From an uncultured SAR86 cluster bacterium (GTDB taxonomy: Bacteria; Pseudomonadota; Gammaproteobacteria; Magnimaribacterales; AG-339-G14): a DNA stretch of 64,000 nt. Shown one piece after another: positions 4,395 to 45,093 of this stretch. Positions within the stretch are counted from its first letter, which is position 1; each line of letters opens with the position of its first letter. The notes beneath the pieces are model-generated. The model worked only from the letters and a program-made list of their open reading frames with translations, made no database searches and was not told the DNA's origin. The translations under genes and the position numbers were made by a program. The stretch lies in contig CACEOL010000001.1 in the NCBI GenBank assembly GCA_902561325.1, positions 156,209 through 220,208 on the forward strand, given 5' to 3'.

Positions 4395-5410
4395 AATGTT
4401 TTCAACCTTTGTTCCAAAGTTGGTATTAAGTTTTTGAACAAGTCGCTATACTTTTTTGTCTCTGTATATTCTGAAGAAGTATTCATTAAATATTTAAGAA
4501 TGGTTTTAAAATCTTTGATTCTTTCTGATCGCTTTAACTCTAAAAAAACTTGAGATAATTTTCCTAATATTCTTGTCTGCCTTTGAAGACTTGCAAAATC
4601 AATCATTCTTTTAACATCTATAGATTTAAGCGAAGCGCTTTTTACTATTTGAGATTTTTCAACGTAAAAATCAAGCCAATTTACTATTTCTTCTTTGGTC
4701 CAATCTATATAAAGATCTTTAAATATCGAGGCTAGGTCTATTCCCAGAGGGCCTATCAAAGCATCTTGAAAATCAATTACGCCAATTTTTTCTTCAGACA
4801 ATGACATTAAATTTCTTGATTCAAAATCATAATGGTTTATGACCTGAGGATAATCTCTGATTTCAGAGATTATTATCGAATAAAATTCATGAATTTCGTC
4901 TTTTGAGCTTTCAAGTTCAGGTACTTCTAAAAATTCTTCTAAAAAGAATTTTTTAAATAAATTTAAATTATTTACTGTAACTTTTTCAAAGTCAGAAAAA
5001 ATGTCTTTATCTAGCTCTATAACTTCAATTTTATGAATTTGATCTATCGCTAATTTGATTAGTTTATTTGAATTTTTTTTATTCAAATAAAATTGCAAAA
5101 CGTCATCGCCAAAATCTTCAACAATTAAATGTCCAAGAGAATCATTTTTAAAATGAATATCTGGTACGTTTACGTTTGCTTGTTTAAATATTTTTGCCTT
5201 AGTGTAAAAGGATTCAATACTTTCATCTATTCCCTCAGGAACAACCATTAATATAGAGCTTTTATCTTTGAAAGGAATTCGAAAAAATGTCCTTTGACTA
5301 GACTCTATTCGAAGCTTTTGACCTTTAGATAGAATGTCTTCATTTGATACACCAATGCTTTCTGATACCCACTTTAAGGATTCAGCAGAAATATCGCTTG
5401 GCTGAATCAA
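4391..5410 (-). CDS. amgK: APH-fold sugar kinase, AmgK-like (anomeric MurNAc/GlcNAc kinase)
   Basis: 339 aa. Has a catalytic-loop-like HYDFESRNLM and IDFQDA. ATGA-type overlap with murU. The synteny amgK-murU / lptD-surA-pdxA matches Pseudomonas. Confidence 0.65.
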   Translation of the reverse strand: MIQPSDISAESLKWVSESIGVSNEDILSKGQKLRIESSQRTFFRIPFKDKSSILMVVPEGIDESIESFYTKAKIFKQANVNVPDIHFKNDSLGHLIVEDFGDDVLQFYLNKKNSNKLIKLAIDQIHKIEVIELDKDIFSDFEKVTVNNLNLFKKFFLEEFLEVPELESSKDEIHEFYSIIISEIRDYPQVINHYDFESRNLMSLSEEKIGVIDFQDALIGPLGIDLASIFKDLYIDWTKEEIVNWLDFYVEKSQIVKSASLKSIDVKRMIDFASLQRQTRILGKLSQVFLELKRSERIKDFKTILKYLMNTSSEYTETKKYSDLFKNLIPTLEQRLKTL

Positions 5411-5415
5411 AATTC

Positions 5416-6276
5416 TTAGGAGTCTATTGCCTCTTTAGGAGGAGGAATGTCATCTGGTACAAAAAAGTCTGGCGCTAACTGAGCAAAAGGTACCTCAGCA
5501 TATTTTGAAAAATCTTTTACTCCATTATCAGCCAGCAAATTATCATCGATACAAAAGTTACCAGTAAAATCTTTAGAATTTTTTGTAAGAATTACATAAG
5601 CAGCATCGGCCATAATTTCAGGAGTTCTAGATACTTTTACGGTTTCATCTCCACCAAGAATATTTTTTACTGCAGCTGTTGCAATAGCTGTTCTGGGCCA
5701 TAAAGCATTTACTGCAACGCCTTGTTCTTTAAATTCCTCAGCCATTCCCAATACGCAAAGGCTCATCCCAAATTTAGCTATCGAATAAGCCACATTGTTT
5801 GCGAACCATTTAGGATTCATATCCAAAGGAGGAGATAAATTTAAAATATGAGGATTTTCAGCTTTTAGTAAATAAGGAAGACATTTCTTTGATGTTAAAA
5901 AGGTTCCCCTTGCATTTATTTGATTCATCAAATCATATCTTTTCATGTCAGTTTGAAGTGTATTAGTTAATTGTATAGCGCTGGCATTATTCACACATAT
6001 ATCGATGCCGCCAAAATGGTCAGCTCCCTTATTAACTGCCTCTTCCAATTGATCTTCAAACCTCACATCGCATAAAACAGGAAAAGCTTTTCCCCCGGCT
6101 TCTTCAATTTCTTCAGCAGCTGTATAAATTGTTCCGGGAAGTTTTGGGTGCGGTTCAGCTGTTTTAGCAGCTAAAATCACATTAGCTCCATCTTGAGCTG
6201 CTCTTTTAGCAATTGCCAGTCCAATCCCTCTTGAAGCTCCTGAAATGAATAAAGTTTTGTTTGTTAATTTGCTCAT
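5416..6276 (-). CDS. Short-chain dehydrogenase/reductase, HSDL2-like
   Basis: 286 aa. Has FISGASRGIGLAIAKRAAQDGANV, PHPKLPGTIYTAAEEIE and YSIAK (YxxxK). From memory, it aligns along its full length to the SDR domain of human HSDL2. Confidence 0.8.
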   Translation of the reverse strand: MSKLTNKTLFISGASRGIGLAIAKRAAQDGANVILAAKTAEPHPKLPGTIYTAAEEIEEAGGKAFPVLCDVRFEDQLEEAVNKGADHFGGIDICVNNASAIQLTNTLQTDMKRYDLMNQINARGTFLTSKKCLPYLLKAENPHILNLSPPLDMNPKWFANNVAYSIAKFGMSLCVLGMAEEFKEQGVAVNALWPRTAIATAAVKNILGGDETVKVSRTPEIMADAAYVILTKNSKDFTGNFCIDDNLLADNGVKDFSKYAEVPFAQLAPDFFVPDDIPPPKEAIDS

Positions 6277-42830: not shown

Positions 42831-42906
42831 GCCCAGATAGCTCAGTCGGTAGAGCAAAGGACTGAAAATCCTTGTGTCGGTGGTTCGATTCCACCTCTGG
42901 GCACCA
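42831..42906 (+). tRNA. tRNA-Phe (GAA), CCA encoded
   Basis: GCCCAGATAGCTCAGTCGGTAGAGCAAAGGACTGAAAATCCTTGTGTCGGTGGTTCGATTCCACCTCTGGGCACCA. Acceptor stem is GCCCAGA/TCTGGGC and the anticodon loop is CT-GAA-AA. Near-identical in layout to E. coli tRNA-Phe. Confidence 0.95.
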
Positions 42907-43034
42907 CTAAATTTATTTATTTTATGAAACTATAATTTCTAGATTTTATAGTTGAAAAAAATTCATAATAATTTCCTTAAAATCTACAAATTGGCATTTA
43001 AATAAGTTAAATTAAGCCCTCATTGGGAGTAAAA

Positions 43035-43943
43035 ATGAAAAAATTATTAATAGTAATTGCTATGGTATTTTCTGGATTAATTTTCAGCCAAAACTTACCA
43101 ATCATTGCAGTGACAGAAATACAATCTTCAGTAGATAGTAAATATTGGAGAGACTATAAAAATTCAAAATCTAATAATTTCCAAAATATGCTGGAAACTC
43201 AACTTGTGAAAGTTGGGAGATTTAAAATCATGGAAAGAAACAGAATAGATGAGGTTTTATCTGAGCAAGCCTTACAAGGAGAATTTTCTGGCTCAGGAAC
43301 CAATATGGCTATGGGAGCAGTAGATTATATTGTTTATGGATCTGTTACCAAATTTGGGAAAAAAGAAAAAGTTATTCAAACCAATAAGTTTTCATCGGTA
43401 AAAATAATTACTGAATTTGGTATTGACTTAAAAGTAGTAAGTGCCTTGGATGGAGAAGTAAGAAGAGCAGAAGCCGTAAATGTTGTTCTGGAGACAGCAT
43501 CAGGTATGTCTACTGGTAAAGTTGCTACTGGGGATGCCGCAGCTGATCCATTAGCAGATGTTCAAAGAAGAGCTGCAAAAAAGGTTGCAGCTGCAATTGC
43601 CGAAAGTATTTTTCCAATTGGAGTCATTACCTTTAGAGATAATGAAGCTTATCTGAATTACGGTGAAGCAATTTTGACAGTTGGTGATAGATTAAAAGTA
43701 ATTCAGCCTGGAGAAGAGCTTATTGATGAAGCTACAGGGTTGAACTTAGGAGCTACCGAAACAGTTATTGGAACTGTAGAAGTCACTGAAGCTTTAGAAA
43801 AGTTTTCAAAAGCTAAGGTGATACGTGGGGGTAACCCAGGGAAAGGTATGCAAGCAAGAATTATCAAGGATGCTAGTTCTGGTTCAGGCGGAAGCCGTTC
43901 AGGTCCTCAAAATCAAAGACAACCGCTAGGGAGACAAATATGA
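43035..43943 (+). CDS. Secreted CsgG/HfaB-fold protein, paralogue 1, with an extra C-terminal beta-rich domain and a Gly/Ser/Gln tail
   Basis: ATG at 43035, 6 nt after the GGGAG RBS. Signal peptide with no lipobox Cys. Contains a CsgG-like core: FKIMERNRIDEVLSEQALQ, VDYIVYGSVTKFG, IDLKVVSALDGEV and ADPLADVQRRAAKKVAAAIAESIFP. Confidence 0.6.
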   Translation: MKKLLIVIAMVFSGLIFSQNLPIIAVTEIQSSVDSKYWRDYKNSKSNNFQNMLETQLVKVGRFKIMERNRIDEVLSEQALQGEFSGSGTNMAMGAVDYIVYGSVTKFGKKEKVIQTNKFSSVKIITEFGIDLKVVSALDGEVRRAEAVNVVLETASGMSTGKVATGDAAADPLADVQRRAAKKVAAAIAESIFPIGVITFRDNEAYLNYGEAILTVGDRLKVIQPGEELIDEATGLNLGATETVIGTVEVTEALEKFSKAKVIRGGNPGKGMQARIIKDASSGSGGSRSGPQNQRQPLGRQI

Positions 43944-44854
43944 AAAAAATTATTAAATCTTTTTCACTTATTCTATTCTTTTTTGCTTTAAGCATAAGTG
44001 CACAAAGCAACAAACCAGTAATAGGTGTGGGTGAAATACAAACTACCATTGGTGGCAATCCTTTGACGTATGCACAAATGTTGGAAACTGCCTTATCTCA
44101 AACAAATAAATTCGAGATTATTGAAAGAGCTCGTATGGATGATTTGTTAGGAGAACAGGCTCTTGCTGCTGGTGGCCTTACGCAGGGATCAGGCCAAATC
44201 GGAGGTTTATCTGGTGTTGATTACTTAGTTTACGGAACCATTACCAAATTAGGTAAAGAAGGAGAAGCCGTGAGTTTTGGTGGAATTGGTGGAGGCAGCT
44301 CTAAAACAACTATGTCAGTTGATATTAAAGTTGTAGATGCTAGAACAGGTTCTGTAAGAATATCTAAAACTGTCGAAAGAACGGCTAAGGGTGCTATGGC
44401 TATATCTCTGGGAGATATTCAAACTGCTAATGAAGAAGCAGATCCTTTAGGAGAAGTCCAAAGAATGACAGCAAACGCAGTTGCATCTCTAATTGCTCAG
44501 GAAATTTTTCCAATAAAAATTATCAATGTTGCTAAAGGACAGGCTTATGTAAATTACGGCCCTCCTAATGTTTATCCAGGTCTTTATTTAAAAGTTGTAG
44601 AGCTTGGCGGAGGCTTTGTTGATCCTGATACTGGAGAAACCTTAGGTGCTGAAGAAACGTATATCGGAGCAATTAAAATTACAGATTCTAAATCTAAGTT
44701 TTCTATTGGAACAATTTTAGAAGGATCATTATCAAATGGAATGATTGCCTCAGTACTAGATAAAAAAGATGGTAAGAAAGCTGAAAGTGGTTATAGAAAA
44801 GTTTGTAAAAAAGCTAAAAACTGCCTAGACGCTACTTTTAAAAAGAAGTATTGA
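43940..44854 (+). CDS. Secreted CsgG/HfaB-fold protein, paralogue 2, with an extra C-terminal domain and a basic Cys-containing tail
   Basis: ATGA overlap with paralogue 1. Same block order: FEIIERARMDDLLGEQALA, VDYLVYGTITKLG, VDIKVVDARTGSV and ADPLGEVQRMTANAVASLIAQEIFP. The tail is KVCKKAKNCLDATFKKKY. Confidence 0.6.
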   Translation: MKKIIKSFSLILFFFALSISAQSNKPVIGVGEIQTTIGGNPLTYAQMLETALSQTNKFEIIERARMDDLLGEQALAAGGLTQGSGQIGGLSGVDYLVYGTITKLGKEGEAVSFGGIGGGSSKTTMSVDIKVVDARTGSVRISKTVERTAKGAMAISLGDIQTANEEADPLGEVQRMTANAVASLIAQEIFPIKIINVAKGQAYVNYGPPNVYPGLYLKVVELGGGFVDPDTGETLGAEETYIGAIKITDSKSKFSIGTILEGSLSNGMIASVLDKKDGKKAESGYRKVCKKAKNCLDATFKKKY

Positions 44855-45093
44855 ATCTTAAAAGCATAGTTTTTATCTTACTTTTGGTAGGAACTTTATT
44901 CTGGGGGCTAATTAATTCTGCGAGTTTTATATCTCTATACTTTATAGAAGACATTCAAAATGCGTTTGAAATTGATTTGTTCCCAGATAATTTAGCCGAA
45001 TACTTAAACTCTTATCTTTTCTTAAAAATTATATTTGCTTGGTTTCCATTTGCGTTTATTTTCTTTCTTTACTATTTTCAAAAGAAAAATTAA
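44851..45093 (+). CDS. Small (80 aa) two-TM membrane protein, possibly coupled to the CsgG-like pair
   Basis: TTG start in a TTGA overlap with the upstream stop. Two hydrophobic stretches (IVFILLLVGTLFWGLI and IIFAWFPFAFIFFLYYF). No homologue recognised and no internal Met. Confidence 0.4.
   Translation: MNLKSIVFILLLVGTLFWGLINSASFISLYFIEDIQNAFEIDLFPDNLAEYLNSYLFLKIIFAWFPFAFIFFLYYFQKKN

Follow-up and report, generated by a model that had tools for sequence, protein, structure and literature searches.

What could a SAR86 bacterium build from two CsgG-like proteins when no curli genes surround them? We analyzed a 64,000-nucleotide stretch of contig CACEOL010000001.1 from a SAR86 cluster bacterium (the window; coordinates below are positions in it unless a locus is named). 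Downstream of its tRNA-Phe gene, it carries a chain of three genes. The first two, p1 and p2, encode secreted paralogs of about 300 amino acids; the third, p3, encodes a micro-protein with two hydrophobic helices. A first-pass annotation had read the paralogs as CsgG-fold proteins that might assemble into either an outer-membrane channel or a periplasmic cage. At roughly even confidence, we favor a reading in which p1 and p2, which carry no lipid anchor, would assemble into a hetero-oligomeric ring in the periplasm. Its subunits would be chained through FlgT_C-like domains and would carry a crown of short hairpins that does not span the membrane, with p3 alongside.

Domain architecture of the two paralogs

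The N-terminal domains of p1 and p2 have a CsgG-family core. The two proteins share 36% identity across 296 columns (E = 1e-52), and every ordered sequence block on which the first-pass annotation had based its family assignment is found in their alignment. Pfam CsgG (PF03783) matches p1 at 44.4 bits and p2 at 73.6 bits, against a gathering cut-off of 20.8, and the assignment is borne out by concordant profile, hhalign, and fold matches. A profile of 43 homologs reached Escherichia coli CsgG in the Protein Data Bank (PDB) with E = 1.8e-6, and hhalign aligned the family to the same protein with 94% probability, including the position of its first transmembrane hairpin (TM1). The E. coli CsgG sequence used in these comparisons is identical to PDB chain 3x2r_D. 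A sequence search with p2 against PDB chains gave nothing useful; only the family profile reached CsgG and a second chain, 6ve2_O. LpoB (PF13036), at 13.5 bits for p1 and 14.7 bits for p2, stayed below its gathering threshold of 22.3, as did DUF4410; both belong to the same fold superfamily as CsgG. NCBIfam returned no match for p1 or p2, and a single weak, meaningless one for p3.

Structural models point to FlgT as the closest full-length analog. AlphaFold2 (AF2) models of the two paralogs, built from alignments A1 and A2, have pLDDT values of 80 and 79 and a pTM of 0.70. Each comprises a signal helix, an α/β domain with unusually long strands (95-113, 116-133, and 139-157 in p2), a separate β-domain of ~85 residues, and a tail, which is helical and basic in p2 and disordered in p1. 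Foldseek against the PDB ranks FlgT first for both models (3w1e and the LPHT ring 8z5n; E = 6e-14 to 9e-15), with 283-293 aligned columns that cover both domains. The second-ranked match, CsgG (E = 1e-9 to 1e-7), covers ~197 columns, which correspond to the N-domain only. Further matches are to other proteins of the CsgG/TolB-N fold, namely GNA1162, CT253, TolB, HpaA, LptE, and PelC. The first-pass placement in the CsgG family is supported for the N-domain, whereas the closest full-length analog is FlgT, a member of the TolB-N-like “non-channel” group that the annotation itself had set against its reading.

The C-terminal domain is a divergent FlgT_C β-roll. An extra β-rich domain of ~100 amino acids had been noticed at first; it is present, although it spans only ~85 amino acids and is followed by a distinct, charged tail. 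Its FlgT_C-like identity, missed in the first reading, emerges from the FlgT fold match and from relatives that match FlgT_C. The isolated C-domains of p1 and p2 match no Pfam family, including FlgT_C (PF16538), even at E <= 10, and the p2 C-domain alone matches no PDB chain. A phmmer search with the p2 C-domain against 1.84 billion representative proteins recovered 424 relatives. Among 40 diverse ones, CsgG-type matches occur in 33, LpoB matches in 21 (up to E = 1.8e-22), FlgT_C matches (PF16538) in 16, and FlgT_M matches in 7. The family profile also aligns with both tandem C-domains of 6ve2_O, a LysM-domain chain that we take to be Pseudomonas aeruginosa TsaP. The first of these tandem domains reads IDPKTKEVLG where the p1/p2 family has VDPDTGEVLG. 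This segment belongs to the most conserved element of the protein, F.DPDTGE.LG.EE (44609-44641, p2 residues 224-234, with an equivalent in p1), and D228, T231, G232, L235, and G236 of the DPDTGE-LG motif are invariant. The acidic D-P-D-T-G-E pattern might bind a divalent cation.

This domain is a known ring-building element, as FlgT and TsaP show. In the Vibrio motor, 26 FlgT subunits make up part of the H ring. A preprint on the TsaP structure describes the FlgT C-domain as a β-roll with an extruding finger. The same preprint reports that, in TsaP, the fingers link the CI and CII domains, both inside one subunit and from one subunit to the next, and that the resulting heptameric belt surrounds PilQ.

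We found no characterized protein with the p1/p2 architecture in the literature, and each of the nearest known systems differs from it. In FlgT, too, TolB-N/CsgG-like α/β domains precede a FlgT_C β-roll; the protein is exported by Sec without being lipidated, and 26 copies make up a large ring in the periplasm. FlgT, however, has three domains (N-M-C), whereas p1 and p2 each have one α/β domain and one β-roll, form a paralogous pair, and carry two long hairpin insertions at the CsgG transmembrane positions. Nor do they lie in a flagellar cluster with MotX/MotY/FlgP: their flanks hold his genes, mutY, yggX, and metabolic genes. TsaP shares the FlgT-C-like domains, both of which the family profile matches, DP.T.E.LG included. 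Its two non-identical domain copies alternate in the ring through their fingers, a precedent for alternation of p1 and p2. In contrast, TsaP has an N-terminal LysM domain, for which p1 and p2 give no Pfam match, lacks a CsgG-like domain, and holds both C-domains in one polypeptide; p1 and p2 have one such domain per protein and two per operon. PelC, GNA1162/DUF799, CT253, HpaA, and LptE share the α/β core fold. PelC, from the Pel exopolysaccharide system, is a dodecamer and, according to PDB entry titles, an example of a ring made from this fold with no transmembrane barrel. Unlike p1 and p2, however, these five are lipoproteins without hairpin insertions or FlgT_C, and PelC works with PelB.

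Hairpin segments, lipid anchor, and the question of a channel

The hairpin segments of p1 and p2 are shorter and more polar than those of CsgG. The first-pass annotation had placed two variable segments where CsgG carries its transmembrane hairpins, and this placement is correct. The first aligns to TM1 by hhalign, and the second lies between the anchors of the second transmembrane hairpin (TM2), flanked by shared SKT and (A/N)(D/E)P motifs as in CsgG. Between equivalent anchors, the hairpins measure 19 and 20 residues in both paralogs versus 25 and 26 in E. coli CsgG. Each is therefore 6 residues shorter, equal to three fewer per strand, and they contain 1 and 0 aromatic residues versus 3 and 5. 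Column profiles over 31-32 orthologs show that p2-type hairpins have only 2-3 consistently hydrophobic positions each, located at the tip (see Table 1) and flanked by conserved charges. The p1-type hairpins are broken by conserved Lys, Arg, and Glu (SKKKEISTKK / FATVKVIAEF). Across 317 single-module relatives, hairpin lengths are essentially fixed: the medians are 19 and 20, and the interquartile range is zero.

The paralogs also lack the lipid anchor of CsgG. Both signal peptides are typical Sec signals that contain zero Cys, in agreement with the first-pass observation that neither has a lipobox cysteine, and convincing lipoboxes are rare among relatives. When the lipidated Cys of CsgG is mutated, the protein is not inserted into the outer membrane and instead forms soluble, ring-shaped periplasmic “pre-pore” oligomers without transmembrane strands. 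Poorly embedded CsgG-like models in NanoporeDB have similarly been linked to an absent anchor. Judged from these sequence features, a CsgG-type transmembrane barrel made of p1 and p2 appears unlikely, and it would be more economical to picture a soluble ring topped by a short β-crown of constant height.

One feature specific to p1 may be compared with the CsgG pore. The p1-type proteins carry an insertion of 9-10 residues (VDS..W.DYKNSK..N, followed by a family-wide Phe) exactly at the site of the CsgG constriction loop. The loop is 21 residues long in p1-type proteins and 24 in CsgG, compared with ~12 in p2-type proteins and in singletons (relatives encoded without a partner), from which the motif is absent. 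It contains Tyr, Trp, and Asn-Phe; CsgG function relies on stacked rings of Phe, Asn, and Tyr in its constriction loop.

Could p1 and p2 nonetheless be a true CsgG-type outer-membrane channel? They would then alternate around a shortened β-barrel, with the p1 loop (W.DYKNSK..NF) as constriction and the FlgT_C domains as a periplasmic collar, and would export or import some peptide or polymer. We regard this as improbable. The PF03783 scores and the profile and hhalign matches to E. coli CsgG that cover TM1 speak for it, but the best structural match over the full length is FlgT, which is not a channel. AF2 extends both segments as long β-hairpins, and those of p2 are Gly-rich like CsgG TM1 with hydrophobic tips; set against this are the missing 6 residues per hairpin, strands with ~5 uncharged residues each, and the lack of an aromatic girdle. 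The length of the p1 loop and its conserved Asn-Phe fit a constriction, yet the strands of the same protein carry conserved Lys, Arg, and Glu on both faces. The lipid anchor needed for outer-membrane insertion of CsgG is missing, no substrate or accessory genes lie nearby, and SAR86 is reported to lack EPS (exopolysaccharide) and adhesion pathways. Of the two options in the first-pass annotation, the periplasmic cage fits better, and a CsgG-type barrel in the outer membrane is not supported, given the short hairpins, the few aromatics, the p1 charges, and the absent anchor.

The pair resembles CsgG itself in its PF03783 match, in its hairpin insertions at both transmembrane positions, and in the p1 loop at the constriction site; functionally, it resembles the soluble pre-pore ring of non-lipidated CsgG. 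It differs in having no lipobox, shorter hairpins with few hydrophobic or aromatic residues, a FlgT_C domain, charged tails, and two paralogs, whereas CsgG is a homo-nonamer (4uv3, 4uv2) with a 36-stranded barrel. As initially reported, csgA/B/E/F, DUF799, and DUF4810 partners are absent from the ten flanking genes scanned. By profile, p1 and p2 belong to the CsgG superfamily; by four features, they are not a curli channel: the missing lipid anchor, the length and makeup of the hairpins, the absence of operon partners, and, in p2, the constriction loop.

A minority of relatives have hairpins of 25-38 amino acids (P0266, P0112, P0114, P0279, P0331, P0332, P0346, P0354, P0361, and P0283). Of these, P0112 and P0114 were inspected, and their long hairpins are rich in Gly and aromatic residues. 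In P0266, hairpins of CsgG length (27 and 24 residues) occur together with a canonical LLGC lipobox. Some members of the wider family may therefore truly insert into membranes; the few relatives of this kind indicate that channel-type members probably exist, and they count in favor of the channel.

Operon conservation, relatives, and genomic context

The p1-p2 pair is a conserved, tightly linked operon. We found p2 to be 95% identical to its counterpart in SAR86 AG-390-O18 (locus L005). Homologs number at least 196 for p2 and at least 472 for p1, mostly from marine metagenomes; where named, they are labeled “CsgG/HfaB family protein”, “curli ... channel CsgG”, or “hypothetical protein”. The pair had been called an orphan, which is true of partner genes but not of homologs, of which there are hundreds. 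In at least 16 of 55 loci, a p1-type gene precedes a p2-type gene, overlapping with it or closely spaced. Carriers include several SAR86 clades, Porticoccaceae, SAR92, Pseudohongiella, Luminiphilus, and Azotimanducaceae, so that homologs do occur as pairs across several gammaproteobacterial lineages. Alphaproteobacteria, Planctomycetota, and Acidobacteria mostly have one gene only. At 11 Sphingomonadales loci (L034, L036, L038, L041-L043, L045-L047, L049, and L051), the CsgG/FlgT_C gene is followed by a conserved gene of ~300 amino acids (~4850-5890). This second gene has no Pfam match and shares with p1 only the motif that starts the C-domain, VNYG....GD.L.V. In Erythrobacteraceae, bamD (YfiO) and recN come next; we do not treat the adjacency of bamD as functional. 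In a SAR86-related genome, the p1-type gene (L002:4070-5004) is split into open reading frames (ORFs) of 130 and 147 amino acids, the result of either a pseudogenizing frameshift or a faulty assembly; its p2-type neighbor and the small ORF there are intact.

The two paralogs have diverged from each other beyond the constriction-site loop. The p1-type proteins end in a conserved QR...GR(K/Q)I after a low-complexity linker, whereas p2-type proteins and singletons mostly end in a polybasic tail, to which the SAR86 clade adds a C-x6-C pair. Singletons mostly score higher against p2 than against p1. On this basis, p2 resembles the ancestral form, and p1 is the derived partner.

Fused relatives indicate that multiple copies of this module recur. 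Six proteins of ~885-970 amino acids contain three [CsgG-like + FlgT_C] modules, the first of which is degenerate (P0252, P0260, P0261, P0263, P0274, and P0316), and proteins of ~616-757 amino acids contain two (P0259, P0288, P0299, P0276, and P0302). We rejected the idea that these are literal p1-p2 fusions, since their modules score alike against both paralog profiles; they are independent duplications. The recurrence of several non-identical copies is indirect support for co-assembly, not proof of it. Together with the conserved operon and the linkage of p3, these fused relatives make the hetero-oligomerization proposed at first plausible.

The third gene is real and travels with the pair. 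Both overlaps by which the first-pass annotation had chained the genes are visible in the sequence: the p2 ATG overlaps the p1 stop (ATGA), and the p3 TTG overlaps the p2 stop (TTGA). The annotation overreached in deriving fixed stoichiometry from them, as overlaps support coupling and not a ratio. Homologs of p3 form four clusters, down to 64% identity, and all are exactly 80 amino acids long. The dN/dS ratio against the 64%-identical copy is 0.09. Two loci (L056 and L057) retain p1-p2-p3 with overlapping junctions although the downstream genes differ, and another (L058) has only a p2-type gene and p3. Its low dN/dS, constant length, and retention beside the pair show that p3 is a genuine member of the operon, as the linked 80-amino-acid ORF had been taken to be.

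Its distribution is narrow. We found p3 only in one SAR86 subclade, and in no lineage outside SAR86 that has the pair; it is a lineage-specific accessory and not a core part. Two other SAR86 loci (L001 and L002) have an ORF of 85-86 amino acids in the same place and with the same topology, at 18-22% identity to p3. In another SAR86 subclade, this ORF is replaced by an unrelated one of 67 amino acids with a single transmembrane helix and a conserved Cys pair (L010:4961-5164, L013:4947-5150). Acidiferrobacteraceae-like genomes have a Cys-containing ORF of ~140 amino acids with a hydrophobic, signal-like start, also unrelated to p3 (L008:5027-5443, L009:4995-5426, L019:878-1294).

Might p1 and p2 work without forming a ring at all? 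As monomers or heterodimers, they could be TolB-N/LpoB-type adaptors that bind and regulate another protein of the envelope (a peptidoglycan synthase, for example, or a factor in outer-membrane assembly) and dock through their FlgT_C domains and tails. We consider this doubtful. LpoB, the outer-membrane activator of PBP1B, belongs to the same fold superfamily, and the weak Pfam matches to LpoB and DUF4410 extend to strong LpoB matches among the C-domain relatives, but p1 and p2 themselves remain under the LpoB threshold. LpoB-type activators are also lipoproteins, and LpoB has a long disordered linker and no FlgT_C. The fold matches to GNA1162, CT253, HpaA, LptE, and TolB, which are monomeric or form small oligomers, would suit an adaptor, whereas FlgT_C domains are known from proteins that form rings. 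Conserved C-terminal ends, QR...GRKI in p1 and a polybasic tail in p2, hint at peptide docking, but invariant hairpin lengths and recurrent multi-copy or fused forms are more easily explained by a repetitive assembly. bamD adjoins the genes in Erythrobacteraceae; across lineages, however, there is no conserved partner gene, as our neighbor-gene search of the 55 loci found no family that is consistently adjacent beyond lineage-specific synteny.

The tRNA-Phe gene upstream of the pair is an integration hotspot. In SAR86 AG-390-O18, an islet of ~2.2 kb lies at its 3′ end (L005:782-3083) and is absent from the corresponding interval of the window (42907-43034). On it lie a gene for a C-5 cytosine DNA methyltransferase (PF00145, E = 1e-97) and a divergent ORF of 299 amino acids without a Pfam match, possibly the cognate restriction enzyme. 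The islet is bounded by a direct repeat of roughly 50 nucleotides of the 3′ half of the tRNA, and the pair lies outside it. This islet and its tRNA repeat mark tRNA-Phe as an att site in this SAR86 population; the p1-p2 pair is not its cargo. Nor is the suggested switch from core to accessory gene content at the tRNA supported: GC content shows no anomaly or island signature, no integrase or mobility gene is found nearby, and the flanks are housekeeping or metabolic (the ten genes scanned are hisB, hisH, hisA, mutY, yggX, and those for DUF4345, a CoA-transferase, UPF0114, a DedA/VTT protein, and DUF3604).

Readings of the locus as a defense system, phage, or structured RNA were negative or negligible. 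PADLOC gave no match, PHROGs and Rfam added nothing, and the pair is essentially absent from IMG/VR viral contigs. In other lineages, a tRNA lies within a few kilobases in 6 of 10 pair loci, with differing identities: Ala 85 bp upstream, Met ~320 bp upstream, and Val, Leu, and Ser nearby (L006:2852-2927; L016:2612-2688; L002:6638-6715; L052:5295-5381; L010:8460-8549). This proximity may reflect chance in compact genomes, past mobility, or shared transcription.

That p1, p2, and p3 are a mobile or accessory set inserted at tRNA-Phe with no conserved host function is very improbable, and we reject it: p1 begins just past a tRNA that bears an islet in a related genome, and pairs elsewhere lie near other tRNAs, but the pair sits beyond the islet repeat and is present in both genomes, has normal GC content and flanks without mobility genes, is near-absent from viral contigs and negative in PADLOC, and is kept in order across many lineages, including several streamlined SAR86 clades.

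The gap between tRNA-Phe and p1 is 128 bp. A GGGAG Shine-Dalgarno sequence at 43025-43029 favors ATG 43035 over TTG 43023 as the p1 start. A scan for promoters and terminators gave nothing that exceeded shuffled expectation, so transcriptional read-through from tRNA-Phe into the pair may occur.

Table 1. Features of the p1-p2-p3 locus in the window
Feature	Position	Strand	Basis or characteristics
tRNA-Phe (GAA)	42831-42906	+	ARAGORN; Rfam tRNA, 75 bits
Shine-Dalgarno sequence of p1, GGGAG	43025-43029	+	Read off the sequence
p1, secreted, 302 amino acids from ATG	43035-43943	+	Sec signal peptide (no Cys), CsgG-like N-domain, FlgT_C-like β-domain, low-complexity tail
p1-specific loop, residues 32-48, SVDSKYWRDYKNSKSNN	43128-43178	+	At the CsgG constriction-loop position (alignments)
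p1 hairpin 1, residues 109-127, KKEKVIQTNKFSSVKIITE	43359-43415	+	CsgG TM1 position; Lys/Glu-rich; AF2 pLDDT ~85
p1 hairpin 2, residues 150-169, VVLETASGMSTGKVATGDAA	43482-43541	+	CsgG TM2 position; polar; one conserved hydrophobic tip position
p1 FlgT_C-like β-roll, residues 193-276	43611-43862	+	Conserved D..TG..LGA.E segment
p2, secreted, 304 amino acids	43940-44854	+	Sec signal peptide (no Cys), CsgG-like N-domain, FlgT_C-like β-domain, polybasic C-terminal helix
p2 hairpin 1, residues 106-124, KEGEAVSFGGIGGGSSKTT	44255-44311	+	hhalign to CsgG TM1; Gly/Ala/Ser-rich; hydrophobic at tip only (111, 113, 116)
p2 hairpin 2, residues 147-166, RTAKGAMAISLGDIQTANEE	44378-44437	+	CsgG TM2 position; hydrophobic tip (155, 157, 162) around an acidic turn
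p2 FlgT_C-like β-roll, residues 190-273	44507-44758	+	Carries F.DPDTGE.LG.EE
p2 polybasic C-terminal tail, predicted helix, KKDGKKAESGYRKVCKKAKNCLDATFKKKY	44759-44851	+	Basic tail kept in most aligned p2-type proteins and singletons
p3, 80 amino acids, TTG start	44851-45093	+	Two hydrophobic helices, acidic connecting loop

A putative periplasmic ring and its meaning

How might such a ring be put together? In the reading that we favor, p1 and p2 would be exported by Sec as soluble, non-lipidated periplasmic proteins and would co-assemble into a hetero-oligomeric ring or belt. Their FlgT_C-like β-rolls would chain side by side through the DPDTGE-LG segment, in the manner of the tandem TsaP C-domains that surround PilQ. 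The CsgG-like N-domains would make a ring akin to the soluble pre-pore of non-lipidated CsgG, on which the 19- and 20-residue hairpins of all subunits would align into a short β-crown. This crown would have neither the length nor the apolar character needed to cross the outer membrane, but its tips, which are hydrophobic in p2 and basic and aromatic in p1, could touch a membrane surface or a partner; membrane contact would then be peripheral and not integral. The paralogs would be specialized: the constriction-site loop belongs to p1, whereas Gly-rich hairpins and a polybasic tail are found in p2. In the SAR86 subclade that co-translates it, p3 would sit in the inner membrane, where it may hold the complex fast or set its location; contact between the acidic p3 loop and the basic p2 tail is one possible means. 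Our guess is that the ring serves an envelope-structural or scaffolding role.

Several observations weigh against the ring. AF2 draws both hairpins long and extended, with high confidence in p1 (pLDDT ~85); hairpins of pore-form CsgG have this shape, which is compatible with a barrel too. Both paralogs exceed the Pfam CsgG threshold, and the p1 loop is CsgG-like in length and contains Asn-Phe. Foldseek TM-scores are low (0.34-0.39), because the relative orientation of the domains differs. Ring formation itself is proposed by analogy with CsgG, FlgT, TsaP, and PelC. SAR86 genomes are reported to be without genes for pili, flagellin, chemotaxis/motility, and EPS production (Dupont et al.). The FlgT flagellum, the TsaP/PilQ pilus secretin, and the PelC exopolysaccharide pathway are therefore expected to be absent. 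For the ring, this would leave none of the machines that FlgT and TsaP encircle as a client. Most lineages with the pair are without p3, and the idea that its acidic loop pairs with the p2 tail is speculation on our part.

A bolder version of the ring, which we hold to be unlikely, is that these proteins make up an undescribed envelope structure. This would be a natural, non-lipidated, two-paralog hybrid of CsgG and FlgT, with the p1 loop, the membrane-dipping hairpins and tail of p2, and p3 to position it. It might act as a shallow, unconventional pore or gate at a membrane; alternatively, it could be a free-standing periplasmic cage that does housekeeping work in streamlined marine Gammaproteobacteria.

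Few heterotrophic bacterial lineages of the surface ocean are as abundant as SAR86. In genomes as streamlined as its own, three envelope genes conserved as a module are unlikely to be expendable. Here, a CsgG α/β domain is joined to a FlgT/TsaP β-roll in a lineage where flagella, pili, and EPS are reported missing and no curli genes lie nearby, which suggests an undescribed use. The automated label “curli secretion channel CsgG” is probably wrong for the p1/p2 subfamily. Such mislabeling would inflate estimates of curli and biofilm potential, as well as counts of candidate nanopores, in marine metagenomes. With their short hairpins of fixed length and no anchor, p1 and p2 provide a natural test of what makes a CsgG-fold ring a membrane pore.

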